A stretch of DNA of 34,691 nt from a virus. Under the pieces are notes generated by a model. The model made no database searches. It was given only the letters and a program-made list of their open reading frames with translations, and was not told the origin of the DNA. This document shows positions 2,001-17,510 of the stretch, piece after piece. A program made the position numbers and the translations under genes. Location of the stretch: the IMG/VR virus record IMGVR_UViG_3300028048_000053, positions 1 to 34,691 of that record; one strand, given 5' to 3'. Positions within the stretch are counted from its first letter, which is position 1. The number at the start of each line of letters is the position of its first letter.

Positions 2001-2052
2001 AAAATTTTTTGTATAATAATATTAGAAAAAATGAATAAAGGAAGTTTGTTCG

Positions 2053-2733: not shown

Positions 2734-2736
2734 AGA

Positions 2737-2766: not shown

Positions 2767-2775
2767 AAAAAAAGC

Positions 2776-2804: not shown

Positions 2805-2838
2805 ATAATCAGAAAGCAAGAGAAAAGGAGATACGAAA

Positions 2839-3024
2839 ATGAGCGAGCTGAGAGAAAAACTGATTGACCGCATGATTCGGATTTACGGCTTTGAGAATAA
2901 AATCGTGATTGACTTCTGCCGATGCTGTGAGACTTTTCCGAATGATGAAGCACATGACAAAACCCTGCGGACGCTGGTAATGGTCCACGAAGAGTGTCCC
3001 GTAATTGAGGAGGAGGATGAGTAA
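2839..3024 (+). CDS. hypothetical Cys-containing protein (61 aa)
   Basis: ORF track; AAAAGGAGA SD; hairpin terminators 3005-3085. Confidence 0.7.
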   Translation: MSELREKLIDRMIRIYGFENKIVIDFCRCCETFPNDEAHDKTLRTLVMVHEECPVIEEEDE

Positions 3025-3212
3025 TCCTCCTCATTTTTTGCATAATTATGCGGCCGCGCGCCACCGGCCCTAGCGCGCGGTTTTTGCATAAATATTCACT
3101 TTTCAGCAATTTTTTGTATAAATATTCATTGTAACACTTTGTAACCATTTTCCCAAAAAACTGTAACTATTTTGTTATTGACTTCTGGCTTACTTTGTGC
3201 TATACTTTAATC

Positions 3213-3315
3213 AAGGTTGAGGGGCGAAAACAAGATAACAACAGGGACTTGTAACTGCCCGATAAAGAAAAGATAGAAAAGGACTTTTCCAGCTATCCCC
3301 GCCCCTCAAAAAACT
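3213..3315 (+). ncRNA. candidate sRNA: promoter (TTGACT 3178-3183, TATACT 3201-3206) to structured ~100-nt transcript with no ORF
   Basis: long-range pairing GAGGGGCG(3218)...CGCCCCTC(3298); no start codon or SD. Confidence 0.35.
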
Positions 3316-3379
3316 TGAAAAAAATGAAAAAAAGGCTTGACAAACTCAAAAAGGTATGCTATAATAAGAGCGTAATCAA

Positions 3380-3397
3380 GGAGAGCTGATAAACTCC
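3380..3397 (+). promoter_or_regulatory. 5'-UTR hairpin family 1 (GGAG/CTCC, loop AGCTGATAAA)
   Basis: identical to 1243-1260 element. Confidence 0.6.
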
Positions 3398-3421
3398 ACA
3401 AACAGAGAAAAGGAGAAAATT

Positions 3422-3631
3422 ATGAAGATGCGTGCTACTACTAAGGCGGCTATTCAGGCCCTTATCGACAACAAGGCTGAGGTCTACCGCTGGACTGATG
3501 CCGAGGGATGGAGCGTCATCAACACCCCGGCATATGGCGTGTCCATGAGCACTCTGCGCAAGTACGCCACCTATGACAAGCGGCCCTATGGTGAGGGCGA
3601 GATGCTGACCGTCACGGGGTGGAGGGAGTAA
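3422..3631 (+). CDS. hypothetical protein (69 aa), paralog of 4972-5181
   Basis: ORF track; about 70 percent identity to the 4972 product (MKMRATTKAAIQALIDNK.. versus MKMKITTKKAIQTLIDNK..). Confidence 0.75.
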   Translation: MKMRATTKAAIQALIDNKAEVYRWTDAEGWSVINTPAYGVSMSTLRKYATYDKRPYGEGEMLTVTGWRE

Positions 3632-3886
3632 TCTTTCCACCATATATAGAGGCCATTCCCACTAAGCGAGAAGCCGTGGCCAGGAGGAAATAACGAAAAG
3701 GGATAAATACTCCAAAATGTCAACTTCTCATAGGAGGGGGGCTCTTGCCCCTCTCCTTTTCTACTCACCCTCGCGCTTTCTGACGCCAGCGCGAGGAGTT
3801 TAGATTTATATATAGATTACACAATTTTTACCCTATTTTTTTGTGCATATTGTCTACTTGATTTTTTCCTGCATCTATGCTATACT

Positions 3887-3995
3887 TTAATCATCAAGGG
3901 GCGGTGACGCTGACCGGCGGGAAGCAGATACCAAGGTAGCTACAAAGGAAAACAGAAACACGGCTTGTGAAGACACACCGACAAAATTTTTTGGA
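3887..3995 (+). ncRNA. candidate sRNA cassette (promoter TTGATT 3858-3863 / TATACT 3881-3886, no ORF)
   Basis: promoter consensus then ~100 nt lacking an ORF, ending in a hairpin plus T6. Confidence 0.3.
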
Positions 3996-4047
3996 GAAAT
4001 TCAAAAAACCCCTTGACAAACCCATGAAAGTGTGCTATAATAAAGGC

Positions 4048-4373
4048 ACAAGGTCAAGAGGGGAACCGAACAGGACGAAGTAAGGCACCGCGGATGACCC
4101 GAAAAGCGACGAGAGGTTGATAAAAGCTTGATACCCTCTTGACTGTCCACTTAAATAGCACTTCAACTATCAGGCAGACGGAGGTGTCGGAAAGATGTTT
4201 ACGAGCGGATTTCTGTAGCAACTGAATAAGCTGTAGAAAAACGTAAATGTAGGAACGGAGGCAGCTTCTAATGTATTGGTCTGGATTTGTGTAGCTACAA
4301 TTAAATGATGTGTTTTCGATAGGCCGGGACGATGCTTGCGCCCCGGCCTATCGCCCGGGCAAAAAACTTTTTT
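4048..4373 (+). ncRNA. candidate ~300-nt non-coding transcript (promoter TTGACA 4013-4018 / TATAAT 4036-4041) ending in a 12-bp perfect hairpin terminator (4310-4347) + GCCCGGGC + T-tract
   Basis: no ORF with SD on + strand; the minus-strand ORF 4170..4694 spans promoters and terminators and is judged spurious. Confidence 0.35.
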
Positions 4374-4445
4374 CAAAATACTATTGACAAGCTCGGAATA
4401 ATCTGCTATACTGTATTCAGAAAGAAACGAAAGGGGAATTTCAAA

Positions 4446-4637
4446 ATGTACACACTGAGTATTTACACCTATGAAATCAGCGACTATAACCGCCTTGACC
4501 TGTATATCAGCGGTTGCGAAGCGGCCTATGCCGCTTTCCGTAAGGCTTGCGAGCTTGCCGACCTCACGGGCGCTTTCGTGAGCCTGTGGGATAACGACAC
4601 GGGCGAGGTCGTTGCGGACAATGGGGAGGATGAGTAA
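4446..4637 (+). CDS. hypothetical protein (63 aa)
   Basis: class I promoter 4384-4415; ATG 4446 in frame with ORF 4332..4637; terminators follow. Confidence 0.7.
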   Translation: MYTLSIYTYEISDYNRLDLYISGCEAAYAAFRKACELADLTGAFVSLWDNDTGEVVADNGEDE

Positions 4638-4680
4638 TCCTCCCCATTGTCTACTGGCCCGAGCGCCCACGGCCCAGGCG

Positions 4681-4733
4681 CTCGGTTTTTGCATAAATAT
4701 TCAGTTTTGGGTGAATTTTTGCATAAATATTCA
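4681..4733. repeat. GCATAAATATTCA direct repeats flanking a 12-bp inverted repeat (TTTTGGGTGAAT / ATTCACCCAAAA)
   Basis: GCATAAATATTCA-like copies also at ~3070, 3107, 5520, 5554, 5583. Confidence 0.6.
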
Positions 4734-4801
4734 CCCAAAAATTTTTCAACTTTTTTCACAAAACCTATTGACATTTCAGAAAAACCTGCTATAATAGGTA
4801 G

Positions 4802-4880
4802 TGTCAAGGGGAGAAGAAAACAACCTCTCACAGGCGCGTAACCTGTTGTAAGTAAAATAAAATCTCTCATAAAAATGTAA
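4802..4880 (+). ncRNA. candidate short transcript from promoter TTGACA 4768-4773 / TATAAT 4790-4795 with no ORF
   Basis: hairpin ACAGG-cgcgtaa-CCTGT; no SD or ATG. Confidence 0.25.
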
Positions 4881-4927
4881 AAAACCCCTTGACAATTCCC
4901 CGTAAGTGTGTTATACTTAAACCATCA

Positions 4928-4947
4928 AAGGGAGCTGATAAACCCTT
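4928..4947 (+). promoter_or_regulatory. 5'-UTR hairpin family 1 (AAGGG/CCCTT, loop AGCTGATAAA)
   Basis: identical to 402-421 element. Confidence 0.6.
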
Positions 4948-4971
4948 GAAAACAGAGAAAAGGAGAACGCT

Positions 4972-5181
4972 ATGAAAATGAAGATTACGACTAAAAAGGC
5001 TATCCAGACCCTCATTGACAACAAGACCCCCATTTTCCGCTGGACTGATGCGGACGGGTGGAGCGTCATTGATACCGCCGCATATGGCGTGTCCATGAAA
5101 ACTCTGCGCAAATATGCCACCTATACCAAAACCCCCTGCGAGGGCGGCGAGATGCTGACCGTCATCGGGTGGAAAGAGTAA
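4972..5181 (+). CDS. hypothetical protein (69 aa), paralog of 3422-3631
   Basis: ORF track; family-1 leader; AAAAGGAGA SD. Confidence 0.75.
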   Translation: MKMKITTKKAIQTLIDNKTPIFRWTDADGWSVIDTAAYGVSMKTLRKYATYTKTPCEGGEMLTVIGWKE

Positions 5182-5215
5182 TCCGCCCTCACATATGAAA
5201 GGAGATATATTCGAT

Positions 5216-5419
5216 ATGGAAAACAGCAGAAAGAATACCTACAAGGGAGCTTCCATTTGCACCATCCTCACTATCCTCTTCGTCATCCTCAAACTGACCG
5301 GCGTGATTGCCTGGCCCTGGTTCTGGGTGCTGTTCCCGCTGATTCTTGACCTCGGCCTCGCCCTCATCATTCTGATCGTCATCATGGTCGTCAAGATTAT
5401 CGCCTTGAAACGCAACTGA
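5216..5419 (+). CDS. small membrane protein, 2 predicted TM helices (67 aa)
   Basis: GAAAGGAGA SD; ATG 5216 in frame with ORF 5195..5419; hydrophobic core ICTILTILFVILKLTGVIAWPWFWVLFPLILDLGLALIILIVIMVV. Confidence 0.65.
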   Translation: MENSRKNTYKGASICTILTILFVILKLTGVIAWPWFWVLFPLILDLGLALIILIVIMVVKIIALKRN

Positions 5420-5463
5420 CTACAATTTGAGAGGGGCTTTTGCCCCTCTCCTTTTCTTGCTTC

Positions 5464-6050
5464 AGCACTTTAACGATTTAAAGCGCTGAAGTTCAGCCGG
5501 GCGCCCGCGGTCCAAGCGCCCGGCTTTTGCATAAATATTCAGTTTTCAATGAATTTTTGCATAAATATACATACATTTTCTGCATAAATATTTTCACAAA
5601 ACCTCTTGACAGATTGCACGGGCTATGCTATAATACAATCAGAAAGCAAGAGAAAAGGAGGTAAAAAACATGAAATACTTTATTCACACCTATGACTGGA
5701 ATTTTGATACGATGGAACGGAAGCATGAAGTTAAAGAAATTAACCATCAAGAGCTTGCGGAACTTGTGCAATACCAAGAGGAAACCGCCTTTGACTACAA
5801 GTGGAATGAATTGAAACTTATCAAAATGACTGATACGGAAATGCACTTCGTGCTTAACAAGAAAACCAAATTAAATTATTAATCTTAAAAAAAGGTAAAA
5901 GAGGGGGATTGCTCCCCCTCTCTTTTTAAGGCAAACACTTTAACGATTTAAAGTGCTGAAGTTCAACCGGGCGCTTTCCCACGCAGCGCCCGGTTTTTCA
6001 ATTTAAATGGTTAAAGCGTAATTTTTGCCGCACTTTAACCATTTAAAGTG
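5464..6050. repeat. three copies of palindrome GCACTTTAA-N4-TTAAAGTGC (5464-5489, 5937-5955, 6031-6050)
   Basis: seen directly; each follows a gene terminator. Confidence 0.6.
5670..5882 (+). CDS. hypothetical protein (70 aa)
   Basis: class I promoter 5608-5640; AAAAGGAGG SD; ORF track. Confidence 0.7.
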   Translation: MKYFIHTYDWNFDTMERKHEVKEINHQELAELVQYQEETAFDYKWNELKLIKMTDTEMHFVLNKKTKLNY

Positions 6051-6138
6051 CTAAATCGCTAAATCCCAAAACATAAGTTCTGCTTATACCTGGATTGAAG
6101 TATTAGTACAGCGAATAGATAAAAATTTCAAAAAAGGC

Positions 6139-6167
6139 TTGACAAATTGCCCGGGCTATGGTATACT
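6139..6167 (+). promoter_or_regulatory. class I promoter TTGACA-N17-TGgTATACT, GCCCGGGC in spacer
   Basis: -35 6139-6144; -10 6162-6167. Confidence 0.7.
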
Positions 6168-6198
6168 CTAATCAAGATAAGACAAGGGGGAAACACCA

Positions 6199-6645
6199 AT
6201 GAAGAAAATTACTTGCAATCCTGTTACCACCTTCAAGAACAAGGGCGACAATCGGGAATGTGCTTTCGGCAACTATATCGGCATGAGCAAGGCATATCAC
6301 GATGATTTGAATTGCTTTGACGCTTCTGACTTCGTAAAGGGCGATATGCGGTACTCTGTCAAAGGTGACGGTTTCACTCTTATGAGCGGATATCTTGCCC
6401 CTGGGGCTGATTCTTTCGATGCTATATGGGCCGTGTTCCGTACTAAGGTTCATAGCAACTGTTTCGTCTATGTAGACGCTGATTTCAACGCCTATATGAT
6501 GAACATTGATGAGTTTGAGAGCTTCGTTTATATGTTCGGCTATATGGCAAAGGAAAGCGACAAGAACGGCGGCGGATGGAAAATCCGTTGCAAGCACGAA
6601 AGCAAAAAAATGGTCAGGTGGCTGTCCGAAAGGGTGGCCGCCTGA
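6199..6645 (+). CDS. hypothetical protein (148 aa)
   Basis: ORF track; SD AAGGGGGA; tandem terminators 6635-6700. Confidence 0.7.
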   Translation: MKKITCNPVTTFKNKGDNRECAFGNYIGMSKAYHDDLNCFDASDFVKGDMRYSVKGDGFTLMSGYLAPGADSFDAIWAVFRTKVHSNCFVYVDADFNAYMMNIDEFESFVYMFGYMAKESDKNGGGWKIRCKHESKKMVRWLSERVAA

Positions 6646-6700
6646 CCCCCCTCTTTTTTTGGCCCTCGCGCCACCGGGCCTGGCGCGAGGATTTCGCATT

Positions 6701-6719
6701 ATTGTGCAGGTTGCACAAT
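6701..6719. repeat. palindrome ATTGTGCAggTTGCACAAT (second copy of 1151-1169 operator-like site)
   Basis: seen directly. Confidence 0.6.
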
Positions 6720-6816
6720 TTTTGCCCCGATTTTTTGTGTATATTGCAGGATTGACTTTTTCCCAGAAGTGTGCTATACTTTAAACAATCCAAGAGGAAA
6801 GGAAAGTCGAAAATTG

Positions 6817-7266
6817 ATGCAGACTATTTACTTTGACATGGACGGCACGCTTGCCGACCTCTATAGTGTCTTTAACTGGCTGGGCAAACTGCGCTCTGAG
6901 GATGCAACCCCCTATATGGACGCCAAGCCCTTAATCCGCATGGCTCTGCTTGCCCGCCTTTTGAATGGCCTGCAAAAGCAGGGGTATCAGATTGGGATTA
7001 TCTCCTGGCTCAGCAAAGAATCTTCACGGGCATATGAGGTAGAGGTCTCTATTGCCAAGGAAGAGTGGCTGAAAAAGCATCTGCCGAGCGTGACTTGGGA
7101 TAAGATGCATTTCATTCCATATGGAGTTCCCAAGGCCGAGGCCGCAAACATTCAGCCGTTCGATATTCTGTTCGATGATGAACAAGCCAATATCGAAGCA
7201 TGGGAGCGCGCAGGTGGATGGGGCTTTTCCCCCGATAAAATCTTTGAAACTCTGCGGGGAATGTGA
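6817..7266 (+). CDS. HAD-superfamily hydrolase, 5'(3')-deoxyribonucleotidase-like (149 aa)
   Basis: N-terminal motif FDMDGTLADL matches HAD motif I as in the NT5C family; ATG 6817 in frame with ORF 6769..7266. Confidence 0.6.
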   Translation: MQTIYFDMDGTLADLYSVFNWLGKLRSEDATPYMDAKPLIRMALLARLLNGLQKQGYQIGIISWLSKESSRAYEVEVSIAKEEWLKKHLPSVTWDKMHFIPYGVPKAEAANIQPFDILFDDEQANIEAWERAGGWGFSPDKIFETLRGM

Positions 7267-7375
7267 GGGGGTATATCCCCCTTCACCTCTCGCCCGGGCA
7301 AAAAATTTTTTCAAAATACTATTGACTTTTCAAATAAGATGTGCTATACTACCAATAGAAAGAGAGGTTAGGAAA

Positions 7376-7522
7376 ATGAAAAAGAAAGAAGTTAATGCTT
7401 ATAAGAAAATGACCCCCGAACAGCTTGCGGCGTTCCTTGCGCTTCGCTGCCGTGGCGGCATAGTCCCCGCAAAAAAGGGCAAGGGTAGCTATAAGCGGAG
7501 TGAGTTTAAGAAAGGGGAATAA
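7376..7522 (+). CDS. small basic protein (48 aa)
   Basis: class I promoter 7324-7355; ATG 7376 in frame with ORF 7121..7522. Confidence 0.5.
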   Translation: MKKKEVNAYKKMTPEQLAAFLALRCRGGIVPAKKGKGSYKRSEFKKGE

Positions 7523-7525
7523 AAT

Positions 7526-7720
7526 ATGCAAATATTTGGTATAGACTGGTGTGAAAATTTTTGGGATGGAAATACCTCCCATGTTTGGGGTCGTATTTAT
7601 AAAAGATACAGCCCCTATAAAAAGAAATCCTATTCATATTTCTGGATTCGCCACAAAAAGAAAAACAAGACCTTTTATCGTATTACCAATAATTTTTTCA
7701 TTGAAAGAGGTAAAAGATGA
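7526..7720 (+). CDS. hypothetical Lys/Tyr-rich protein (64 aa)
   Basis: AAGGGGAA SD then ATG 7526; ORF track. Confidence 0.5.
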   Translation: MQIFGIDWCENFWDGNTSHVWGRIYKRYSPYKKKSYSYFWIRHKKKNKTFYRITNNFFIERGKR

Positions 7721-7850
7721 AAAATAGAGTTGCCCTTTTGGGTGACCCTATTTTTCGCCCGGGCGAATTTTTTTTATAAAACCTATTGACAAACTTGGCG
7801 CAATGTGCTATAATCACTATAGAAAGTTAAGAAAAAAGGAGATAATAAAA

Positions 7851-8045
7851 ATGAAAATCAAAGTTACCTATTACATCCCTGTGGAAAGAGAAATTGAAAT
7901 GACCCCCGAAGAATATTGTCTGTTCCATGCGGACGGTAAACTGCACGGTGAAAAGGTAATTCCCGATAATGCCATCTATGAAGATGTGACCCTGCCGGAA
8001 GAAGCCATAGAAGAGCTGACTGAATATTTTTATAAAAATTTTTAA
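7851..8045 (+). CDS. hypothetical acidic protein (64 aa)
   Basis: class I promoter; AAAAGGAGA SD; in frame with ORF 7803..8045; 10-bp hairpin terminator 8072-8110. Confidence 0.7.
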   Translation: MKIKVTYYIPVEREIEMTPEEYCLFHADGKLHGEKVIPDNAIYEDVTLPEEAIEELTEYFYKNF

Positions 8046-8272
8046 CATTATAGGAATCCCGGGCGCTCACCCTCGCGTGCCCGGGCGCCACGCGAGGGAT
8101 TCGGTTTTTTATGCAGTTTTGGCAAATTTTTTGCATAAAAATTCACCCCATAAAATTTTGATTTTTTTCCTAAAAAAGGCTTGACATTTTCATCCCCATG
8201 TGCTATAATGTGTATGCAATCGAGGGAGGGACGCCAACCCTGGTTAGCATTTTTGAAAGGATTTGATGCACT

Positions 8273-8935
8273 ATGGACAAGCGCAAGACCTATTACCTGA
8301 CCATCGACACGGAAACCGCAAACAATATGGACGACCCCATGATGTATGACATAGGGGGAGCTATCCATGACAAGCGGGGCATGGTCGAGGAAACTTTTTC
8401 CTTTGTCATTTATGACATTTTCTGCCGTGACCGCAGGCTTTTCAACACCGCCTATTATGCGGACAAGCGCCCCATCTATGAAGCGGGTATTGCGGACGGC
8501 TCTCGCAAGCTGGTAACTATCTTTACCGCAAAAAAGTATATTGCGGCCCTTAGCCGCAAGTATGATGTAAAGGCGATTATCGCCCACAATGCCCGCTTTG
8601 ATAACGGAAGTACCAACAAAACCCTGCGCTATATTACCAAGAGTAAGATGCGCTTTTTTCTGCCGTATGGTATCCCTGTTTGGGATACTCTGAAAATGGC
8701 TCGTGATACTATCTGTAAGCAACCCACTTATAAGCGGTGGTGTGCCGACCACGGTTTTCTTCAGAAGAACGGCACGCCGAGGGCTACCGCTGAAATTCTG
8801 TATCGTTACATTACTTGCAACGCAGAGTTTGAAGAAAGTCACACGGGGCTTGAAGATGTGCTAATCGAAAAGGAAATTTTTGCCAAGTGTATGGCACAGC
8901 ACAAGCCCATGCGGAAACTGTTGTGGGATAAATGA
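8273..8935 (+). CDS. DEDDh-family 3'-5' exonuclease (DnaQ / RNase T-like), 220 aa
   Basis: YLTIDTETAN (Exo I) and AHNARFD (Exo III, His type) motifs read in the translation; terminator 8938-8975. Confidence 0.7.
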   Translation: MDKRKTYYLTIDTETANNMDDPMMYDIGGAIHDKRGMVEETFSFVIYDIFCRDRRLFNTAYYADKRPIYEAGIADGSRKLVTIFTAKKYIAALSRKYDVKAIIAHNARFDNGSTNKTLRYITKSKMRFFLPYGIPVWDTLKMARDTICKQPTYKRWCADHGFLQKNGTPRATAEILYRYITCNAEFEESHTGLEDVLIEKEIFAKCMAQHKPMRKLLWDK

Positions 8936-9091
8936 TAAAATGGGGGGATTCAATCCCCCATTTTATTTTTCATAGCGAGTTAGCAATGGCTAACTTTTTC
9001 GCCCGGGCGATTAGCAAATTGCACAAAAAATAAACGATGTTTTTGTGCAAAATCCCATCTTGCAAAATGGGGGTAGGTCGTGCTATACTAT

Positions 9092-9170
9092 AATTGTTCC
9101 AAGGGGGAAGGCAAACAGCGAAAGCCTTTAGCGAGGTAGGACACTTCCCCCAACGGAACGAAAAAAATTT
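9092..9170 (+). ncRNA. candidate sRNA (CCAAGGGGGAAGGCAAACAG...ACACTTCCCCC family) from promoter TTGCAA 9045-9050 / TATACT 9080-9085
   Basis: no ORF; 8-bp stem GGGGGAAG/CTTCCCCC; two related copies at 13496-13600. Confidence 0.35.
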
Positions 9171-9295
9171 AAAAAAGGTCTTGACAAGCCGCTGAAAGTG
9201 TGCTATAATAAGACCGTAAGTGAGAGAGAGAAAATCTCCACTCCACCGCCTTGCCGCTACTAAAAGGCGTAAGAATCTGGTAGCACCACAAAGGG

Positions 9296-9311
9296 TAGTG
9301 ACCTACCACTA
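9296..9311 (+). promoter_or_regulatory. 5'-UTR hairpin family 2 (stem TAGTG/CACTA, loop ACCTAC) abutting AAAGGAG
   Basis: covarying copies at 13683-13698, 15560-15575, 17185-17200, 17614-17629. Confidence 0.55.
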
Positions 9312-9326
9312 AAGGAGTTGTGTACT

Positions 9327-9695
9327 ATGACTACTTCTAAGATGACCTACAAGACCGCTATCGAGTACGCTATCCGCAACCTGCCTGCCGATGCCCCTGT
9401 CGAGGTGACGGACAAGCTGACCGCCCTTATCACTTCCCTGGAGAAGAAGAGCGGCGCCGAGCGCAAGCCCACCGCCACGCAGGTGGCGAACGAGGGCTAT
9501 AAGGCCGCCATCATGGAGTACCTTTCCGATGTGGGCGAGCCCAAGACCGTGGGCGACATTCTGAAAGAGGTTCCTGCGGTGGCTGGCTTCTCTACCCCCA
9601 AGGTGTCCGCTCTGATGAAACAGCTCACCGAGGGCGGCGCTGTCGAGCGCTTGACTGACAAGCGCCGCACCTACTTCAAGGCGATTGTCGCCTAA
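9327..9695 (+). CDS. winged-helix-like DNA-binding protein (122 aa), paralog of 13714-14100
   Basis: C-terminal ~75 aa nearly identical to the paralog, including at nucleotide level; ORF track. Confidence 0.7.
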   Translation: MTTSKMTYKTAIEYAIRNLPADAPVEVTDKLTALITSLEKKSGAERKPTATQVANEGYKAAIMEYLSDVGEPKTVGDILKEVPAVAGFSTPKVSALMKQLTEGGAVERLTDKRRTYFKAIVA

Positions 9696-9853
9696 CCCCT
9701 GCGGGGGGTGGAGAAATCCACCCCCATTTTTTCCAAGGCGAGTTAGCGGCGGCTAACCGCCCGGGCGATTTAAATGTTGCCTGCGCAACATGAAAAATTC
9801 TTGACTTTTGGTTTCAATGTGGTATAATAAGACCGTGGAAAGGAGTTGATTTT

Positions 9854-10216
9854 TTGGATGAAAAACGCATAGCCCTCTTGATGAAACAGCTTGACATTTC
9901 CAGGGATGAAGCAATCGAAGTCTTGAAAGAGGACAGCGAAATTGACAAGGGCGCAGAACTGTTTGAACTAACCCCCGAACAGAAACAGGTCGAAAAGAAA
10001 ATGCGCCAAGCTGACCGCAAAGTGACTGCCTATAGCTGGAAACCAAGAGAGCGCAAACCCAACGAAACCAAAAGAAAGCTAATTCAAGATTTGGCCTTAA
10101 CCCTGCATCATAATCCTATGGTAGATAGCTGGGAAATCACCAATCAAGAACGGCAAATTGATTTTGAGTGCAACGGCACCAAATATCGTATCATTCTGAG
10201 CGCCCCCCGCAAATAG
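9854..10216 (+). CDS. hypothetical protein (120 aa), paralog of 12613-13014; TTG start; terminates with TAG
   Basis: AGGAG 8 nt before TTG 9854 (the only ATG nearby hits a stop after 4 codons); ends at the same relative point as the paralog, so TAG 10214-10216 acts as a true stop here. Confidence 0.6.
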   Translation: MDEKRIALLMKQLDISRDEAIEVLKEDSEIDKGAELFELTPEQKQVEKKMRQADRKVTAYSWKPRERKPNETKRKLIQDLALTLHHNPMVDSWEITNQERQIDFECNGTKYRIILSAPRK

Positions 10217-10410
10217 GGGGCGCTTTTCATTTTGAATAATTATTCACTTCCTTTGAGCCGCTGGCGCACGGGCGCGTGCCAGCGGTGTTCGGCGCAATCA
10301 GCACTTTCCACAAAAAACGTTGCGAAAATTTGTGCAATTTGCCATCTTGCTTTTTTCCTGAAATGTGCTATACTATAATCACAAAAGGAAAAGAAAAGGA
10401 GATGCTTCAA

Positions 10411-10686
10411 ATGATGTTCAATGATGCTGTGTATGTGGGTCGCGAGTGCCCGTTCTGCGGTGAGTACCACGAGGTACTTGTCAGCGAGGCTGACTTTGCC
10501 GCGTGGCAGGGTGGGGAGTTGGTGCAGGACGCCTTCCCCTATCTCTCCGCTGACGAGAGGGAAATCCTTGTCAGCGGCATCTGTCCCAAGTGTTGGGCAG
10601 AGACCTTTGGCGAGGAGGGAGACGAGGAGGAGGAGTGCTTTGAGCCTGGTCGCCCCTGCGTCAACATGTTTGAGCTGAACCCCTAA
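10411..10686 (+). CDS. Zn-ribbon protein (CPFCG...CPKCW), 91 aa
   Basis: ATG 10411 is 9 nt after AAGGAG; in frame with ORF 10276..10686. Confidence 0.65.
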   Translation: MMFNDAVYVGRECPFCGEYHEVLVSEADFAAWQGGELVQDAFPYLSADEREILVSGICPKCWAETFGEEGDEEEECFEPGRPCVNMFELNP

Positions 10687-10796
10687 TTATGGGGTTTAGT
10701 CGCCCGGGCGCAATTATGTAAACCAAAAAAATCTGAAAAAATTTCAAAAAAGGTATTGACATTTACGCCCCCCTGTGCTATACTATAATTGTTCCA

Positions 10797-11335
10797 AGGG
10801 AGTGGCCATTGACCAAGGAACTGTGGAGGGAAGCCAACATCGGCCCTGCGAGTACCAAATAATGATTGTTGGTGACGGTTAGACGCTTAAGTTGCTATGC
10901 GAACAAACACTTTCTCAAATAGCAGAAAGGGGTTAGAGACAGCAGAGCCACCCTTTTTTAGGCAGTTTTTTCCTGTGGCGTTCAAGGAAAAAATATTCTG
11001 ACTTTTTTAGTGTTCATCTGGTCATTCTTCACCAAACACTGGATTTTTCAAGAGGAAAGAATCTAAAAATAATTGGAAGAAACTGAATACTTTTAGGCAG
11101 TTTTCAATTCAGTCGCTGTGATAGAAAGAAACTCCCCCTTGCGGGGGCGGTGAGGTTAGTAAGGTAAGAGCTAACGGCTTATTGGGTCGAGCCGCTGAAT
11201 ATCAACATCCGCCCCCCAATAAGGGATATTTAAATACCTCTCTACTTTTTGTAGTGCTCCTTTTCTTTCTCTCTTTCTTTCTGTGGCGTGGGTAGGATTT
11301 TCCTACCCTTGCGCCCGGGCGAAAAATTTTTTGCC
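10797..11335 (+). ncRNA. ~540-nt apparently non-coding transcribed region between a consensus promoter (TTGACA 10761-10766) and terminator 11288-11335
   Basis: no ORF with SD; several long-range stems (CTTATTGGG...CCCAATAAG, CCCCC-ttg-CGGGGG); ORF 11283..11471 spans the next promoter and is judged spurious. Confidence 0.3.
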
Positions 11336-11412
11336 CCAATCAAATTTTCCCCTTGACATTTATAAAAAAATATGTTATTATAATAGTACAAAAAGAAAGG
11401 AGATAATAAACA

Positions 11413-11577
11413 ATGACAAACGCTATTTTGATTATCCTCTGCGTGTATTTTGCGGCTTCGGCCCTTGTTGATGCCGCAAAAGCAGACCGCAATCCCTGCT
11501 GGTCTACCTGCCTTGATGTGGTCTTTGACCTGGCTCTGCTGGTGGGCGTGTTTCATTTGATGGAGGTATTTTGCTGA
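11413..11577 (+). CDS. small membrane protein (54 aa)
   Basis: AAAGGAGA SD + ATG 11413; stop TGA overlaps next ATG (TGATG). Confidence 0.55.
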   Translation: MTNAILIILCVYFAASALVDAAKADRNPCWSTCLDVVFDLALLVGVFHLMEVFC

Positions 11578-12056
11578 TGAATACCGCAATTTTGCTTTTT
11601 GTCATTTGCACTCTTGCAAATGTTGTCATTGCGACTATCAAAAGTGTAATGACCATCAAGGGCGGCAAGGTTGCCGCTTCCATCTGGAACGCTCTCAGCT
11701 ATGGCCTTTACTCCTACATTGTGATAATGACCGCAAACGCCGACATTTCCACGCTCGGCAAGGTTTTAATCACCGTAGGCTGTAACTTAATCGGCGTGTT
11801 TTTCGTTAAGTTAGTAGAGGAAAAGATGCGAAAAGATCGCCTGTGGAAAATTGAAATGACAATTTATTCCACCAACGCCGACAAGATGCACCAAGAACTG
11901 GAAAATGCTGGTATCCCCAATAACTATGTAATTGCAGGCCGCCATGCTATTTTTAATTGTTTCTGCGATACTCAAAGTGACAGCGCAAACGCCCTTGCTA
12001 TTGGCAAGACCTACAACGCAAAAACTTTTGCATCAGAAACAAAACTTAATCCCTAA
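11577..12056 (+). CDS. membrane protein with soluble C-terminal domain (159 aa)
   Basis: ORF track 11571..12056; ATG 11577 translationally coupled; 3 hydrophobic segments. Confidence 0.65.
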   Translation: MNTAILLFVICTLANVVIATIKSVMTIKGGKVAASIWNALSYGLYSYIVIMTANADISTLGKVLITVGCNLIGVFFVKLVEEKMRKDRLWKIEMTIYSTNADKMHQELENAGIPNNYVIAGRHAIFNCFCDTQSDSANALAIGKTYNAKTFASETKLNP

Positions 12057-12116
12057 CGGCATTCCCCGCCTCGGCGGGGATGTTGCCCGGGCGCAAAAAA
12101 ATTTTTAAAAAAAGTC

Positions 12117-12145
12117 TTGACAAACTGCGCAAAGTACACTATACT
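12117..12145 (+). promoter_or_regulatory. class I promoter TTGACA-N17-TATACT
   Basis: -35 12117-12122; -10 12140-12145. Confidence 0.65.
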
Positions 12146-12179
12146 GTCTACAGAAACCAAGAGAAAAGGAGATACCAAA

Positions 12180-12494
12180 ATGAAAAAGGGTTTTGTTTCC
12201 ACGATGCGCAAGGGATTCCACATGACCTTCCCCAACGGCCTGACCGTTTCCGTCCAGTGGGGTGCTGGCAACTACTGCGACAACCACTTCCCCAAGGATA
12301 TGGATTTCACCTTCTCCAAGGACGCCGAAAGCGATACTGCCGAGGTTGCTGTCATCGATCCGCAGGGTGAGTTCCTTGACCCTCAGCGGTTTTTTGACTA
12401 TGAAATCAGATCTGACGGCATGGTGGCTGGCTGGCTCGACCCCTCGCAGGTTGTTGAACTGTTGGCGAATGCGCGCGACTGGCCTAACATCTAA
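12180..12494 (+). CDS. hypothetical protein (104 aa)
   Basis: AAAAGGAGA SD; ATG 12180 in frame with ORF 12117..12494. Confidence 0.7.
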   Translation: MKKGFVSTMRKGFHMTFPNGLTVSVQWGAGNYCDNHFPKDMDFTFSKDAESDTAEVAVIDPQGEFLDPQRFFDYEIRSDGMVAGWLDPSQVVELLANARDWPNI

Positions 12495-12612
12495 GGCCAG
12501 TCTTTCGCCCGGGCACGCATAAACATTCACTGAAACTGAATAAAAATTCTTCTTGACATTTGTTTATAGGTGTGCTATACTATGTATAGTCCAGGAGAAA
12601 GGAGAGGTAGTA

Positions 12613-13014
12613 ATGGCAAGACAGTCCGCTAAAGAGCGTGAAGCGCAGATTGAGCGCACGATGAAAGCCCTTGAAGTCACAAGGGAAGAAGCCCTTGAAA
12701 TCCTCGCAGAAGATGACGAGATTGACAAGGGCGCAGATCTTCACCCCTTGACCCCCGAACAGGAAAAAGTTGTTAAAAAGATGCGGCAGGCTGACCGCAA
12801 GCCCACGGTCTACAACTGGCAGAAAAAGCGTGAGCGTAAGCCCAACGAACTCAAAAGAGAAATCATCGACGATTTGTTCGGTTTCTTTTGCGAGAACTGG
12901 CCAGAAGTGGCAAAGAATGGAAACATCATCAACCCCGAAAGACAGATTGACTTTGAGCTTGGAGGGGAGAGCTTTTCCATCACTCTGACCCAGCACCGCA
13001 AACCCAAGGCGTAA
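12613..13014 (+). CDS. hypothetical protein (133 aa), paralog of 9854-10216
   Basis: shared block EIDKGA.L..LTPEQ..V.KKMRQADRK......W...RERKPNE.KR.II and a C-terminal ERQIDFE motif. Confidence 0.7.
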   Translation: MARQSAKEREAQIERTMKALEVTREEALEILAEDDEIDKGADLHPLTPEQEKVVKKMRQADRKPTVYNWQKKRERKPNELKREIIDDLFGFFCENWPEVAKNGNIINPERQIDFELGGESFSITLTQHRKPKA

Positions 13015-13134
13015 GGCGTAAGGGGGGAACATTTGTTCCCCTATCTGCGCCCGGGCGGCCGCAAACTGCACAATTTTAATACTCTGTTTTTGTGCAAAAC
13101 ACCATCTTGCTTTTTTAAGATAGTGTGCTATAAT

Positions 13135-13215
13135 AATAATTGTCAAGGGGCTGTAAACCGCGGGGCATCCAAATAAGTCCTGTACTGCGTGGTAAGAAAT
13201 TTCAAAAAGTTTTTT
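13135..13215 (+). ncRNA. candidate sRNA or leader between promoter (TTGCTT 13100-13105 / TATAAT 13123-13128) and tRNA-Lys
   Basis: no ORF; AT hairpin TTTCAAAAA-g-TTTTTGAAA at the 3' end. Confidence 0.3.
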
Positions 13216-13239
13216 TTTGAAAATCCCCTTGACAAACTT

Positions 13240-13314
13240 GCGGCCATGGTGTAATTGGTAACACAGTAGACTTTTAATCTATCATTCGGGGTTCAAGTCC
13301 CCGTGGTCGCACCA
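13240..13314 (+). tRNA. tRNA-Lys (anticodon UUU), CCA encoded
   Basis: manual cloverleaf: acceptor GCGGCCA/TGGTCGC, D stem GTGT/ACAC, anticodon stem GTAGA/TCTAT with loop CTTTTAA, T stem CGGGG/CCCCG with loop TTCAAGT. Confidence 0.8.
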
Positions 13315-13495
13315 ATTCCTTTCCTTTTTATTATCTCTCTCTTTCTTACAAAGAACCCTGCTAAAGCGATTTAGTGGGGTTTCTTTGTAGAATCGCCCGG
13401 GCGACTGGCAAAATGCACAAAACAATTTCTAAAATTCTATCTCATTTTGTGCATTTTGCCTATTGTAATCTGTGCGCCCTTGTGCTATACTATAA

Positions 13496-13600
13496 TCGTT
13501 CCAAGGGGGAAGGCAAACAGCGTTAGGACACTTCTTCAAAGGGGGAAGGCAAACAGTGACAGGGCACTTCCCCCCTCGGACGCCGAAAAAAATTCCAAAA
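13496..13600 (+). ncRNA. two tandem copies of the CCAAGGGGGAAGGCAAACAG sRNA-like motif from promoter TTGCCT 13455-13460 / TATACT 13478-13483
   Basis: sequence family shared with 9092-9170. Confidence 0.3.
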
Positions 13601-13713
13601 AACTCTTGACAAGCCGCTTTGAGTGTGCTATAATAATGGTGTCAATGAGGGAAGCCCCTCTTGAACATAAAAAAAATATGGGTAGCGACCTACCGCTAAA
13701 GGAGTTGTGTACT

Positions 13714-14100
13714 ATGACTAACACCAAGATGACCTACAGCAAGGCTATTGCCGCCTGTATCGACCTGCTGACCACTGGCGAGACTTCTGAGAATCCCACC
13801 GAAATCGTGGAGAAGCTGACCGCCCTCTCCGAGAGCCTTGCGAAGAAGTCTGGGGCTGAGCGCAAGCCGACTGCGACCCAGGTTGCCAACGAGGGCTATA
13901 AGGCGGAGATTCTCGCCTATCTGCGTGATGTGGCCGAGCCTAAGACTGTGGGCGACATTCTCAAGGAAGTCCCCGCCGTGGCTGGTTTCTCCACTCCCAA
14001 GGTATCTGCCCTCATGAAGCAGTTGGTTGACGAGGGTAACGGCCCCGTCGAGCGTCTGACCGACAAGCGGCGCACCTACTTCCGCATCAAGGCGGAGTAA
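13714..14100 (+). CDS. winged-helix-like DNA-binding protein (128 aa), paralog of 9327-9695
   Basis: family-2 leader; ATG 13714 in frame with ORF 13447..14100. Confidence 0.7.
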   Translation: MTNTKMTYSKAIAACIDLLTTGETSENPTEIVEKLTALSESLAKKSGAERKPTATQVANEGYKAEILAYLRDVAEPKTVGDILKEVPAVAGFSTPKVSALMKQLVDEGNGPVERLTDKRRTYFRIKAE

Positions 14101-14240
14101 GCCCCCTGCGCCCATCCCCTCCCCTGCAATAGTGGGGGAGGGGCGCGCCCGGGCGAAAAAAATTTTTTTTAAAAACCCCTTGACAAACCTCTATAAATGT
14201 GCTATACTTTAGATGTTCCAAGAGGAAAGGAGAGAGTGTA

Positions 14241-14480
14241 ATGGAAAAGAAGTTTAACATGGTAGTGACCCTTACCAATGGTAAAGTCCTGCGCCACTAC
14301 GGACTTTCCTTGCGCATGGCGGCAACTATGAAATTGCACTATCAAGAGAAGTACCCTAACACCCTTGAAGAAATCGAAACCGTTTACGCAGGGACGAACA
14401 AAAGAGCTACGGCGCTTTGCTATTTCATTGAAGATGGAGAAAACGATCCTATCGCTTTCTATGAGCGTTACGGCTGGTAA
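14241..14480 (+). CDS. hypothetical protein (79 aa)
   Basis: class I promoter 14183-14215; AAAGGAGAG SD; in frame with ORF 14199..14480. Confidence 0.7.
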   Translation: MEKKFNMVVTLTNGKVLRHYGLSLRMAATMKLHYQEKYPNTLEEIETVYAGTNKRATALCYFIEDGENDPIAFYERYGW

Positions 14481-14494
14481 AAGGAGGAAATAAA

Positions 14495-14740
14495 ATGGCT
14501 ATTTCTATTAAGCGTGAAAAGAACGAGCGCGGCGTGACGGTCGGCTCTCTCAAAGTGGGCGACACTTTCATGTATGACAACCGTATCGGCGTTATCGTTG
14601 ACCGCAATGGTCACTGTTTTCCCATGGATTTTGCAACCTGTGCCACCTTTCACAAACATCCCTGGACATCCGAAGCACTTCTTCCGCAGGAGATTGTTCT
14701 GCCTATCGAGGTCGAAATGACTTGCAAGGTCGTGGGCTAA
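14495..14740 (+). CDS. hypothetical protein (81 aa)
   Basis: AAAGGAGGA SD then ATG 14495; ORF track. Confidence 0.75.
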   Translation: MAISIKREKNERGVTVGSLKVGDTFMYDNRIGVIVDRNGHCFPMDFATCATFHKHPWTSEALLPQEIVLPIEVEMTCKVVG

Positions 14741-14857
14741 GCCTTTCCCCGCTTCGGCGGGGAAATCGCCCGGGCAAAAAACTTTTTTCAAAAACCTATT
14801 GACATTTTCCTAAGTATGTGCTATACTATAATCACAAAAGGAAAGGAGATAATCAAA

Positions 14858-15130
14858 ATGACCTATTCCATCCAGATTTATCGCATGAATGCTGGCTCTT
14901 GGGAAACCTTTGTTCAGTTTACCCCCGTCGTCTTTGACGAAATGATCGAAGCTGGCAAGGCTATGTTCGTCAATCCTCTACTGTCTGCGGAGAATGTTGC
15001 TATCGTTGATGACACAACTGGCGAAGTTCTCTGGGATGCCTGTTCCGATGATGAGGACTGTGAGCCTGCGGACATTGATGATGATTGCGGCTTTGACCCC
15101 TACGAGGGCTGTTTCACCTACGACTGCTGA
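14858..15130 (+). CDS. hypothetical acidic, Cys-containing protein (90 aa)
   Basis: AAAGGAGA SD; ATG 14858 in frame with ORF 14816..15130. Confidence 0.7.
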   Translation: MTYSIQIYRMNAGSWETFVQFTPVVFDEMIEAGKAMFVNPLLSAENVAIVDDTTGEVLWDACSDDEDCEPADIDDDCGFDPYEGCFTYDC

Positions 15131-15244
15131 CCCCCTACAAGGGGGTCAGTTTGCCCGGGCGAAAAAATTTTTAAAAAGGTCTTGACAAACTCTCAGTAAT
15201 GTGTTATACTGTATTCAGAAATCAAAGGAAAGAGGGAATAAACC

Positions 15245-15457
15245 ATGGTGTGTCCTAAGTGCGGCCCTGGGGCAGCTGTAATGTCCGATGAGTGTATTGA
15301 TGTTGAGGAGTACGACGATGATAACATTGCCGTAACCTACGAGGGGACTTGTCTGTGGTGCAAACGCAAATACCAATGGACGGAAATCTATAAATATAGC
15401 CGTATCAAAAATATTATTGAAATTGGTACAGCTCCGCAGGAGGAAGAAGAGAACTAA
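15245..15457 (+). CDS. Zn-ribbon protein (CPKCG...CLWCK), 70 aa
   Basis: ORF track; class I promoter 15185-15215. Confidence 0.7.
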   Translation: MVCPKCGPGAAVMSDECIDVEEYDDDNIAVTYEGTCLWCKRKYQWTEIYKYSRIKNIIEIGTAPQEEEEN

Positions 15458-15589
15458 CCCCCCTCTTTTTCTTCCCCCTGCGCCCGGGCGCAAAAATTTT
15501 TTTTCAAAACCCCCTTGACAACCCTCCAAGAGTGTGTTATAATAAAGGCACATTGAGGGTGGTGGCCTAACACCAAAGGAGAATTTGTT

Positions 15590-16195
15590 ATGAACAAGAG
15601 TGACTTTTTCGAGCGTGAAATCCAGTTCATTGAGGACATTGACCTCCAAGACTTTGTTCGCTTTTTCTTCAATGAAAGATGCGGCGACTGGTTTTGGAAG
15701 TCTGGGGCTTCCAGTTCTGGGAAATATCATCCCCAGTTCACCAAGGGCGAGGGTGGACTTGTGCGCCATACTAAAGCCGTTGTGTGGGTCTGTGAGGAAC
15801 TTCTGCGCATGAGTTCCTACGCCTACATGAAAGACATTTACAAGGACTACGCAAGGGTCGCCTGCCTGCTTCACGATACACGCAAGTATGGCGGCGGGGA
15901 TGAAGAGGATAAAAGTTATTATCCACGTCATGGTGAAGCCGCCGCAAATGATGTTGGTGTGGCGTGGCGAGAGTTTTTCCACTGTCATTCCTGCCCCGAA
16001 TTGCTTTTGATGGCTATTCACTCCCACATGGGACAGTGGACGGAAAACAGAGAGGACAGACCCTTTACCAACATTGACCGCCTGGTACATCTGTCGGACT
16101 ACATCGCAAGCCGTCCTTTCTGGGACATTCCCGACATTACCACCGAATACAACGAAGCCAATGCAAAGATGATTGAAGATTCTCTGCCTTTCTAA
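15590..16195 (+). CDS. HD-domain phosphohydrolase (201 aa)
   Basis: H..H...LLHDTRKYG...H motif arrangement typical of the HD superfamily; family-2 leader; ORF track. Confidence 0.6.
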   Translation: MNKSDFFEREIQFIEDIDLQDFVRFFFNERCGDWFWKSGASSSGKYHPQFTKGEGGLVRHTKAVVWVCEELLRMSSYAYMKDIYKDYARVACLLHDTRKYGGGDEEDKSYYPRHGEAAANDVGVAWREFFHCHSCPELLLMAIHSHMGQWTENREDRPFTNIDRLVHLSDYIASRPFWDIPDITTEYNEANAKMIEDSLPF

Positions 16196-16286
16196 TCCCC
16201 CTCCCCTCTGTCCCAGTGACAGAGGGGAAATCGCCCGGGCGAAAATTTCCTCTTGACAAGAGGCCAAAAGTATGCTATACTGTATT

Positions 16287-16400
16287 TACAATTCACGGAG
16301 AAATCCGTTTTACATACCTGCGGACTGCCGAACAGGCTTTTTCCAAAATTTCTCATGGGCCTGCATAGGATAACATGACTTTCTGCGGGAATTTTTGAAA
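16287..16400 (+). ncRNA. candidate sRNA cassette (promoter TTGACA 16255-16260 / TATACT 16278-16283; no ORF)
   Basis: only very short ORFs; hairpins CGGAGAAATCCG and CCTGCGGACTGCCGAACAGG. Confidence 0.25.
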
Positions 16401-16466
16401 ATAATACTTGACAAACAAGCACAAGTATGTTATAATAAAGGCACAAAAAGGAAAGGAGATAATAAA

Positions 16467-16694
16467 ATGCTCGATCACATTGGCGGCATCCCCGATGGAC
16501 ACATTGTAGAGTTTCCGCACTCTGCGCGCACTTTCATGAAGGTCTGCACAAGAGATGGGCAGGGCGGAGTTGTTGACATCACTACAGGTGAGCTGATTAT
16601 GATAAGCGACCTGCCGCGATACGGTATTGATGTATGGTGCTCTGAGCACTACGGAGAAAGGGCTACTATTCAGTACGAAGTAGAGGACGATTGA
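16467..16694 (+). CDS. hypothetical protein (75 aa)
   Basis: AAAGGAGA SD; ATG 16467 in frame with ORF 16395..16694. Confidence 0.7.
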   Translation: MLDHIGGIPDGHIVEFPHSARTFMKVCTRDGQGGVVDITTGELIMISDLPRYGIDVWCSEHYGERATIQYEVEDD

Positions 16695-16793
16695 CCGTCC
16701 TCTTGGCCCGGGCGAAAAATTTTTTTAAAAACCTCTTGACAAGTGATTAGCTTTGTGCTATAATGAAGTCACAAAAGGAAAGGAGATACAAAA

Positions 16794-17075
16794 ATGAGAG
16801 CAACAGGTATTGTAAGACGCATTGATGACTTCGGCAGAGTTGTCATTCCGAGGGAAATTCGCAAAACTCTCAACATTCGCGAGGGCGACCCCCTCGAATT
16901 CTTCACCGACCCCGACGAGAGGGCTGTGTGCTTCAAGCCCTATCTGCCCTACTCCGAGCCGTGGCGTATGCTCGAAGATGCCGCAGAGACCATGCGTGAC
17001 AGCGAGGACTTTCACGAGTTCGCCGCCGATGTTTACGCCCTTGCGCGTAAGATTCGGAAATCTGCGCAGGGCTGA
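16794..17075 (+). CDS. AbrB/SpoVT/MazE-like regulator (93 aa), paralog of 1707-2000
   Basis: MRATGIVRRIDDFGRVVIPREIRKTLNIREGDPLEF matches the swapped-hairpin pattern. Confidence 0.7.
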   Translation: MRATGIVRRIDDFGRVVIPREIRKTLNIREGDPLEFFTDPDERAVCFKPYLPYSEPWRMLEDAAETMRDSEDFHEFAADVYALARKIRKSAQG

Positions 17076-17216
17076 TAAATACCCCCGCCTTGGCGGGGGA
17101 AATCGCCCGGGCGCAAAAGTTTTTTCAAAAAGGGCGTTGACAAAGGTATAATCTTGTGCTATAATATCAATGTAAACAAAAGGGTTGCGACCTAACGCAA
17201 GAAAGGAATTGATACT

Positions 17217-17510
17217 ATGAATTTCTGGATTGTTATTTTGACCATCTACATTTTCTTTACTATTACCCTGTTCTTTGTGTCTGCCGCTCAGGCGTTCGAA
17301 GTTCGGCGGCGTATCTACGCAAAAGTTGGTAAGAATTACTATGACTCTTTTTCCAAGCGAAGCATTGTTGAAAAAATTGTTAAACTTTTAACCAGCTTTT
17401 TCTTGTCTGCCATTCCTATTCTTAACTTTTTTGTAACTTTTCATGTGATTATTCATGCTGAGGAATTAGTAAATAGTAGTGTGCAGAAATGGCTTGCAGA
17501 ACATAAATAA
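17217..17510 (+). CDS. membrane protein (97 aa)
   Basis: family-2 leader; ORF track; two long hydrophobic segments. Confidence 0.65.
   Translation: MNFWIVILTIYIFFTITLFFVSAAQAFEVRRRIYAKVGKNYYDSFSKRSIVEKIVKLLTSFFLSAIPILNFFVTFHVIIHAEELVNSSVQKWLAEHK

Follow-up and report, generated by a model that had tools for sequence, protein, structure and literature searches.

Gut phages that read the TAG stop codon as glutamine (genetic code 15) have been described among crAss-like, Lak, Agate and other clades (bioRxiv 10.1101/2021.08.26.457843; PMC9523058). One of them, phAss-1, has a genome of 136 kb with 36 tRNAs and carries TAG in 41 of its 147 open reading frames (ORFs) (PMC10607447). In the model of Borges et al., early genes keep to the standard code and later genes are recoded, and an endonuclease of a group I intron in an Agate phage, which is enriched in recoded TGA codons, was read as a case in which endonuclease synthesis is delayed until the code has changed (bioRxiv 10.1101/2021.08.26.457843). 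Published recoded phages often do without accessory genes for the code change, such as release factor 2 or a synthetase.

Here we describe the left end of a phage genome in which the same use of TAG can be followed along two promoter modules. The stretch analysed, referred to below as the window, comprises 34,691 nucleotides and corresponds to the left end of the 171,985-bp metagenome contig ena:ERZ27252073:k141_3465. The 18.5 kb that were compared are identical at every base, window positions being contig positions plus 6; an identical gene set is found on a JGI contig of 171,974 bp. By exact-protein look-ups the reading was extended to an extrapolated position of 70.5 kb of the ~172 kb, and all coordinates beyond 34691 are extrapolated. 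Gene and TAG tallies refer to the first 62 kb (97 genes), and a further 8 kb (12 genes) was read up to 70.5 kb; capsid, lysis and replication genes are not among the genes seen in these ~70 kb. The genome is that of a ~172-kb phage of gut or rumen type. Searches with 6.5-kb pieces gave no nucleotide similarity to deposited phages, near or distant, and the proteins showed distant similarity to those of large phages of Enterococcus and Bacillus and of further phages of Firmicutes, which suggests a Firmicute host. We consider, with a probability of about 0.85, that this phage employs genetic code 15 in part of its genes, TAG being decoded as glutamine by an amber-suppressor tRNA(CUA) of its own.

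The genes are arranged in blocks with distinct promoters. The early module (50-18231, + strand) holds 39 small genes, many terminators and 32 strict class-1 promoters of the consensus TTGACA-N17-TGnTATAAT (~45 copies when near-consensus ones are included, all on the + strand); behind each lie one or a few small genes with an AAGGAG ribosome-binding site (RBS), often followed by a terminator. The second module starts at its first class-2 promoter (TTGcaa…TATAATATATATAGAAAATAAAGAAAGG; 19648-19700, + strand). Promoters of this class are AT-rich and highly conserved (TTGAtt…TATAAAAAAtattaTATAATATATATAGAAAATAAAGAAAGG), with 16 strict copies between 19671 and 47425, all on the + strand, and serve the genes from 19.7 to 54 kb, which include mostly genes of unknown type, an array of more than 25 tRNA genes (32.7-48.8 kb) and numerous genes for homing endonucleases. 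In a scan of 62 kb the two classes are strictly separated along the genome, with no class-1 promoter to the right of 18231 and no class-2 promoter found in the early block. Genes for tail and tail-fibre proteins form a minus-strand block that begins at 54.4 kb, and the sequences upstream of them yielded no late-promoter motif. Since the class-2 promoters keep sigma-A-like hexamers, the 'middle' timing of the second module is assigned from architecture only.

We also used the class-2 motif as a 31-base pattern (25 specified bases), which retrieved more than 119 metagenome stretches, including human-gut and other contigs of 147-240 kb; the present contig was absent among the matches listed from the viral and metagenome collections scanned. 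The spread of the pattern suggests that this promoter may be common to a large group of related big phages.

In-frame TAG codons occur in 19 of the 97 genes over 62 kb. In total there are 54 of them, with no in-frame TAA and no in-frame TGA, and as TAG accounts for ~23% of the stop trinucleotides on that strand, an excess of this kind lies far beyond chance (p about 3e-35). The minus-strand genes near the start of the second module illustrate the pattern. A putative GIY-YIG homing endonuclease gene (20460-21227, - strand; 25% G+C) carries eight TAGs and neither TAA nor TGA in frame; its assignment comes from a GIY…YVG motif in the translation, Pfam giving no match. The DUF6291/HTH gene at 21512-21886 (- strand) has three, at codons 18, 24 and 40, all spanned by the Pfam DUF6291 match (residues 5-72), and a 59-codon ORF at 21891-22070 (- strand) has two. 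The adjoining ribbon-helix-helix (RHH) gene (DUF6290/RHH_1; 22087-22230, - strand) has none, so that the initial annotation, which had placed TAGs in the RHH operon regulators and the homing endonuclease, was right for the three downstream minus-strand genes and wrong for the RHH gene itself. These four genes make up an AT-rich minus-strand cassette (20230-22330; 25-37% G+C) with a direct repeat of ATGTATTACA, present twice, upstream of the RHH gene and TTTTTGTACAAAAA palindromes upstream of the endonuclease gene; placed between the two promoter modules, the cassette has the appearance of a mobile island that regulates itself.

On the + strand, a 258-codon middle gene (28416-29192; ATG at 28416, AAGGAG RBS 9 nt upstream) has a TAG at codon 9. 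Two further non-endonuclease genes with a strong RBS likewise carry TAG within the first ten codons, at codon 10 (gene at 35408) and codon 9 (gene at 52146). A 297-codon homing endonuclease gene (31119-32012, + strand), whose product consists of three Cys-rich repeats and a nuclease domain, contains TAG at codons 82, 113, 206 and 220, and a tail-fibre gene contains six. The PHROG matches of the endonuclease (HNH/homing endonuclease, E 2e-44) and of a tail protein (E 4e-59) both run across the TAGs. At least eight homing endonuclease genes of three kinds (GIY-YIG, HNH and a repeat/PD-(D/E)XK-like type) are present, some standing alone and others lodged within tRNA or protein genes, mostly with no ribozyme that could be recognised. 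None of the 120 relatives listed, of more than 6500, for the 297-aa endonuclease came from this contig. As these matches show, the ORFs that carry TAG are conserved and intact genes.

Several observations argue that the residue inserted at TAG is glutamine. TAG and glutamine codons are exchanged between close relatives. In a 79-codon gene (36030-36269), the relative L011 has CAA in place of the TAG found here at codon 38; in the 297-codon endonuclease, codon 220 is TAG here and CAG in the relative L010, codon 241 is CAG here and TAG there, and the other three TAGs are kept (3/4 conserved). At codon 24 of the DUF6291 gene, glutamine is found in 35 of 72 aligned homologs (out of 108 retrieved by an exhaustive profile search) against a background of 3.8%, within a conserved 'EQQD' motif, and serine is not among the nine commonest residues of that column. 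Glutamine is also enriched at three of the four TAG columns of the endonuclease (66 homologs). At the TAG column of a partial HNH gene at the end of L003, homologs have F, K, R or N, which is uninformative, and the protein itself was not among the homologs retrieved. The ENA copy of the contig had been called with TAG→Q by an independent pipeline. Codon swaps, the DUF6291 column and the endonuclease columns, three lines independent of one another, all give glutamine as the meaning of TAG in this phage.

The tRNA array begins inside the window (32730-34641, + strand) and runs beyond it to ~48.8 kb; the window itself contains no tRNA with a CUA anticodon. A search along the rest of the array placed a tRNA(CUA) at extrapolated 47560-47653 (k141_3465 47554-47647; L008 15030-15123), detected by ARAGORN and by the Rfam tRNA model (53.3 bits), 13 kb to the right of the window. 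The last class-2 promoter (start 47402) precedes this gene by ~125 nt, and the 32 class-1 promoters all lie elsewhere. The suppressor suspected by the initial annotation to be expressed with the middle/late programme, and to change the meaning of TAG, thus has its gene behind a class-2 promoter, which together with TAG-free early genes and TAG-carrying tail genes supports that proposal.

The tRNA measures 94 nt and has a variable arm of 25 nt, a G1·U72 pair, G73 and a Gln-like D arm. Members of the same family, of 94-96 nt and with U1-A72 and G73, are found in four IMG/VR contigs (L251, L252, L254 and L255), three of which carry a second tRNA(CUA) of ordinary length. Across the four phage homologs, compensatory changes affect 11 of the 21 cloverleaf pairs and, as judged by eye, the stem of the variable arm too. 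We found no description of such a long-armed Gln-type tRNA(CUA) in the literature searched. Neither a release factor nor a synthetase gene was seen in the ~70 kb read.

Other features of the array and its surroundings deserve mention in their own right. A tRNA-Asp(GUC) gene (window 33180-33723) forms a perfect cloverleaf whose anticodon loop is split by a 467-nt AT-rich insert; this insert is almost wholly a PD-(D/E)XK (PF11645) ORF (33250-33669) with only 47 nt non-coding, and resembles group I introns in having U as the last base of the 5' exon and G as its own last base, with no ribozyme found in it by Rfam. A second split tRNA (extrapolated 40852-41772; L003 17603-18523) harbors an 844-nt insert with an HNH endonuclease ORF containing three in-frame TAGs, and the choice of junction decides whether its anticodon reads as UCA (opal-suppressor type) or as CCA. 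Exact searches of IMG/VR gave no uninterrupted copy of either split gene. Directly 3' of the suppressor tRNA(CUA) lies a tRNA-Leu(UAA) (extrapolated 47709-48292; L008 15179-15762) with an ORF-less 499-nt intron between positions 34 and 35, which we take to be the classic cyanobacterial/plastid position; the Rfam Intron_gpI match (46.1 bits, E 5e-9) is slightly below the gathering score. A tRNA-Ile with anticodon UAU (window 34414-34489), a type rare in bacteria, would read ATA directly, a codon expected to be frequent in the AT-rich endonuclease genes. A Thg1-like gene (tRNA-His guanylyltransferase family; extrapolated 46289-47086) is located inside the array, and a Y-RNA-like (YrlA) match occurs at extrapolated 45292-45409 (45 bits, E 3e-7, under the gathering score). 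A DUF2828/VWA gene (extrapolated 49594-52046) is split into parts of 147 and 371 aa by an insert with two TAG-containing ORFs, one for a small HTH protein and one for a GIY-YIG/NUMOD3 endonuclease, and in which no ribozyme was detected. The YrlA-like RNA and the Thg1-like and DUF2828/VWA genes hint at an RNA repair or quality-control module.

The use of TAG differs strongly between gene groups. We expressed it as the share TAG/(TAG+CAA+CAG) per group for the 97 genes in 62 kb. It is 0% in the 39 early genes (0/71), 6% in the 41 non-endonuclease genes of the middle module (10/176), 39% in the eight homing endonucleases of GIY-YIG, HNH and repeat type (33/84) and 21% in the nine genes of the tail module (11/53). 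The early genes have no in-frame TAG in 3462 codons, with CAG making up 50 of their 71 CAA/CAG codons. The difference is significant between early and tail genes (p=4.5e-5) and between endonucleases and other middle genes (p=6e-11), and it is not significant between early and ordinary middle genes (p=0.07). Early genes are therefore compatible with the standard code and tail genes are recoded, 'early' and 'late' being assigned from promoters and function. Most middle genes have no TAG at all, including those for large proteins (a 560-aa protein, 0/26, and an 816-aa vault-like protein, 0/30), and seven of the ten TAGs of ordinary middle genes sit in small ORFs adjoining endonucleases. The glutamine-type codons of the endonucleases comprise 45 CAA, 6 CAG and 33 TAG, so that CAG is nearly replaced, and the TAG-bearing genes are nearly all AT-rich (G+C mostly 0.23-0.39, with three tail-module genes at 0.40-0.52). 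Within the middle module, promoter class predicts the presence of TAG far less well than does AT-richness or homing-endonuclease identity of the gene.

Some of these genes are of separate interest. The 816-aa protein (extrapolated 65495-67945), with 29 CAG, 1 CAA and no TAG, has a major-vault-protein shoulder domain (PF11978), and the 560-aa middle protein has no relative in IMG/VR. In the early module, a consensus class-1 promoter opens a region (window 10756-11340) with ~500 nt devoid of a plausible ORF before the next promoter. A potential early gene with an in-frame TAG at 10823-11086, after the promoter at 10756, was rejected on account of its weak start and a translation that is not protein-like, and is more likely non-coding. 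The region is a candidate early non-coding RNA, with no match in Rfam.

As a stop codon, TAG is found in one gene only. This early gene (9854-10216, + strand; 120 codons) begins with TTG, 8 nt downstream of an RBS (ggaaaggag) and behind a class-1 promoter, TTGACT-N16-TGgTATAAT, at 9801-9828 (+ strand). Its TAG (10214-10216) lies in the loop of an intrinsic terminator hairpin (10198-10225, + strand; GAGCGCCCCC-cgcaaaTAg-GGGGGCGCTT; 10 pairs, 8 of them G-C) that is followed by the T-rich tail TTCATTTT (fold -21.5 kcal/mol, z -4.2), as the initial annotation had seen, except that the stop codon is within the hairpin itself. The product has no Pfam or PHROG match, and the same 120-aa protein was called in a short-read assembly. 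A paralog (12613-13014, + strand; 54% identity, E 3e-39) does end in TAA, at an approximately equivalent and not at the same relative position, as it is three codons longer (…HRKPKA against …PRK before the stop). In an ortholog from the relative L006, TAG and hairpin are kept at the same place, and the sequence 3' of the TAG is unconserved (54 codons here, 16 unrelated codons in L006). Because the post-TAG sequences of the two phages are unrelated, the conserved protein truly ends at this TAG. The view that TAG is a real stop in the early programme is supported to this extent, by one gene.

It had also been proposed that stop-codon usage is split, with TAG ending an early gene and never one in the AT-rich module. 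The sequence facts behind this hold: the 25 gene models at 19.7-33.7 kb end in TAA (21) or TGA (4), which is unlikely from composition (0/25 TAG, p=0.0015), and TAG occurs there only within reading frames, with 18 codons in five gene models and not, as first counted, 10 in four. The early genes end in TAA (24), TGA (14) and TAG (1). Counted over 62 kb, the contrast is carried by one gene, with 1/39 early against 0/58 later genes (Fisher p=0.40), so that a split between early and later terminators is not demonstrable. TAG terminators are depleted in early genes too (1/39 against ~12% expected, p=0.04). TAG ends 1 of 97 genes and none of the 12 added between 62 and 70.5 kb. The recoded codon is thus depleted at gene ends, and TAG stops are avoided across the whole 62-kb region. 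No later gene ending in TAG and no early gene with an in-frame TAG was found in the 62 kb or in the 8 kb up to 70.5 kb.

These data fit a scheme in which decoding of TAG changes in the course of infection. Early genes lack in-frame TAG and lie behind consensus host-type promoters, so a naive host ribosome can translate them. Class-1 genes would be expressed first, under the host's code, and the suppressor would then accumulate with the class-2 programme. ORFs carrying TAG could be completed only after it has built up; the ones gated in this way would be chiefly those for homing endonucleases (39% TAG), those for tail and tail-fibre proteins (~20%) and, in the middle module, a few in which TAG comes close to the 5' end. 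Translation of the early gene with a TAG stop would end correctly in the first phase of infection; once the switch has occurred, part of its ribosomes may continue into the terminator, so that a longer or non-stop product is made. The suggestion that TAG read-through serves as a timing device is thus a candidate role, and one already published as a hypothesis by Borges et al.

Other explanations were weighed against this reading. If TAG were always a stop, the interrupted ORFs would be pseudogenes of decaying selfish endonucleases. Homing endonuclease genes often decay, and the standard-code calls on the JGI contig fragment those seen here into pieces of 81, 82, 70 and 122 aa; however, decay should not spare TAA and TGA in every one of 54 cases (p about 3e-35), nor leave purifying selection on both sides of the TAGs, where the 297-codon endonuclease and its L010 relative differ by 33 synonymous and 14 non-synonymous changes. 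With domain matches spanning the TAGs, TAG positions conserved, tail genes also carrying TAG and a suppressor tRNA in existence, we find this explanation hardly credible. It is also very unlikely that TAG is read as serine or another residue, or by a host function such as pyrrolysine insertion or a host suppressor. The 25-nt variable arm and G73 resemble determinants of tRNA-Ser and, taken alone, would suggest recognition by seryl-tRNA synthetase, which is why TAG→Ser was considered. It was set aside in view of the three codon swaps, which all involve glutamine codons, and of the conserved glutamine column in which serine is essentially absent; the tRNA homologs, moreover, have U1-A72 and G73 with a Gln-like D arm. 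The 'tRNA-Pyl' label given by ARAGORN follows from the CUA anticodon, whereas the normal 7/5 cloverleaf with a long arm is unlike tRNA-Pyl with its short variable loop and small D loop, and no pyl genes were seen in the ~70 kb read. That the 'split' reflects chance or composition, TAG being a rare terminator everywhere and a single early TAG stop being uninformative on decoding, agrees with the Fisher test and with the depletion among early genes given above, and for the terminator statistics this explanation stands. It covers terminator counts only and leaves the 54 in-frame TAGs, the suppressor tRNA and the TAG/CAR swaps unexplained; for the finding in full it already stands refuted, and we regard it as improbable.

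The rival we take most seriously grants the recoding and denies it a regulatory role, the endonuclease bias being mutational or historical. CAG→TAG changes would accumulate neutrally under AT pressure in genes that are dispensable, selfish or expressed after the suppressor, endonucleases may import TAGs as they move between code-15 phages, and the early/late pattern would be a by-product. The AT-richness of nearly all TAG-bearing genes, the near replacement of CAG in the endonucleases and the statistics, in which the large contrast is between endonucleases and other middle genes (p=6e-11) and the one between early and ordinary middle genes reaches p=0.07, all favor it, as does the view of low G+C as a route to recoding (Borges et al., bioRxiv 10.1101/2021.08.26.457843). 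It accounts less well for early genes with 50 CAG and zero TAG, for the three non-endonuclease genes with TAG in the first ten codons behind a strong RBS, which looks like gating, and for TAG positions kept between relatives (3/4 in the endonuclease). We give it a substantial chance of being right, if somewhat below even. In the opposite direction, a more far-reaching proposal would see here a new type of amber suppressor, conserved among several uncultured phages, that combines a Gln-type acceptor (U1-A72 or G1·U72, G73) with a class-II variable arm that is long and covaries, and that serves mainly selfish genes in the present phage. The TAG load would act as a leash that silences at least eight homing endonucleases, some inside tRNA genes of the array, until the phage programme is under way, and the early gene with a TAG stop would behave in the opposite way, being silenced when ribosomes read through into its terminator. 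This proposal is speculative and we hold it to be rather unlikely as a whole.

The organization of the early block recalls that of a phage with an ordinary code. In Bacillus phage SPO1 (Herelleviridae), which uses the standard code, the host-takeover module is a terminal block of many small genes with strong sigma-A promoters and terminators. The present genome likewise has a terminal block of small genes, each with a strong host-sigma-A consensus promoter and a terminator, and in both phages later promoter classes differ. It has no sequence similarity to SPO1, its second promoter class retains sigma-A-like hexamers, and its code is not the standard one throughout.

For the suppressor, the nearest familiar case is supE of Escherichia coli, a tRNA-Gln with a CUA anticodon that acts as an amber suppressor inserting glutamine. 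The phage tRNA family shares Gln-like acceptor features with it (U1-A72 or G1·U72, G73). Unlike supE, however, the tRNA is encoded by a phage, is a natural part of its coding system and has a long variable arm, which to our knowledge is not found in any tRNA-Gln. In Firmicutes, Gln-tRNA is made via Glu-tRNA and GatCAB, which would make charging of the phage tRNA proceed by another route than that of supE.

The closest relatives in strategy are the code-15 phages. As in those, in-frame TAG stands for glutamine, a tRNA(CUA) is located in the tRNA cluster, early genes are compatible with the standard code, structural genes are recoded, only part of the genes is affected and the genome is large with many tRNAs. 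In contrast to them, the present phage has no nucleotide and only distant protein similarity to deposited phages, its recoding is sparse (19 of 97 genes in 62 kb) and falls mostly on homing endonucleases, and its suppressor has a 25-nt variable arm, with no release factor or synthetase gene in the ~70 kb read.

The phage strategy has already been described, and as the phenomenon is known the finding opens no new question. It has practical weight, in that gene callers set to the standard code split at least 19 genes within the first 62 kb, tail genes included, and one public copy of the contig (JGI) is fragmented in just that manner. It also provides a clean and compact case of the published model, with sharply separated promoter classes and a located suppressor, and the bias of TAG to homing endonucleases makes restraint of selfish genes by recoding testable in one genome. 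In this last respect the phage resembles the Agate phage, where a homing endonuclease is also loaded with a recoded stop codon; there TGA is read as Trp, and here TAG is read as Gln in at least eight endonuclease genes of three kinds. This genome is a fresh example of the strategy, in which the long-armed Gln-type suppressor and the extreme endonuclease bias could be new details.
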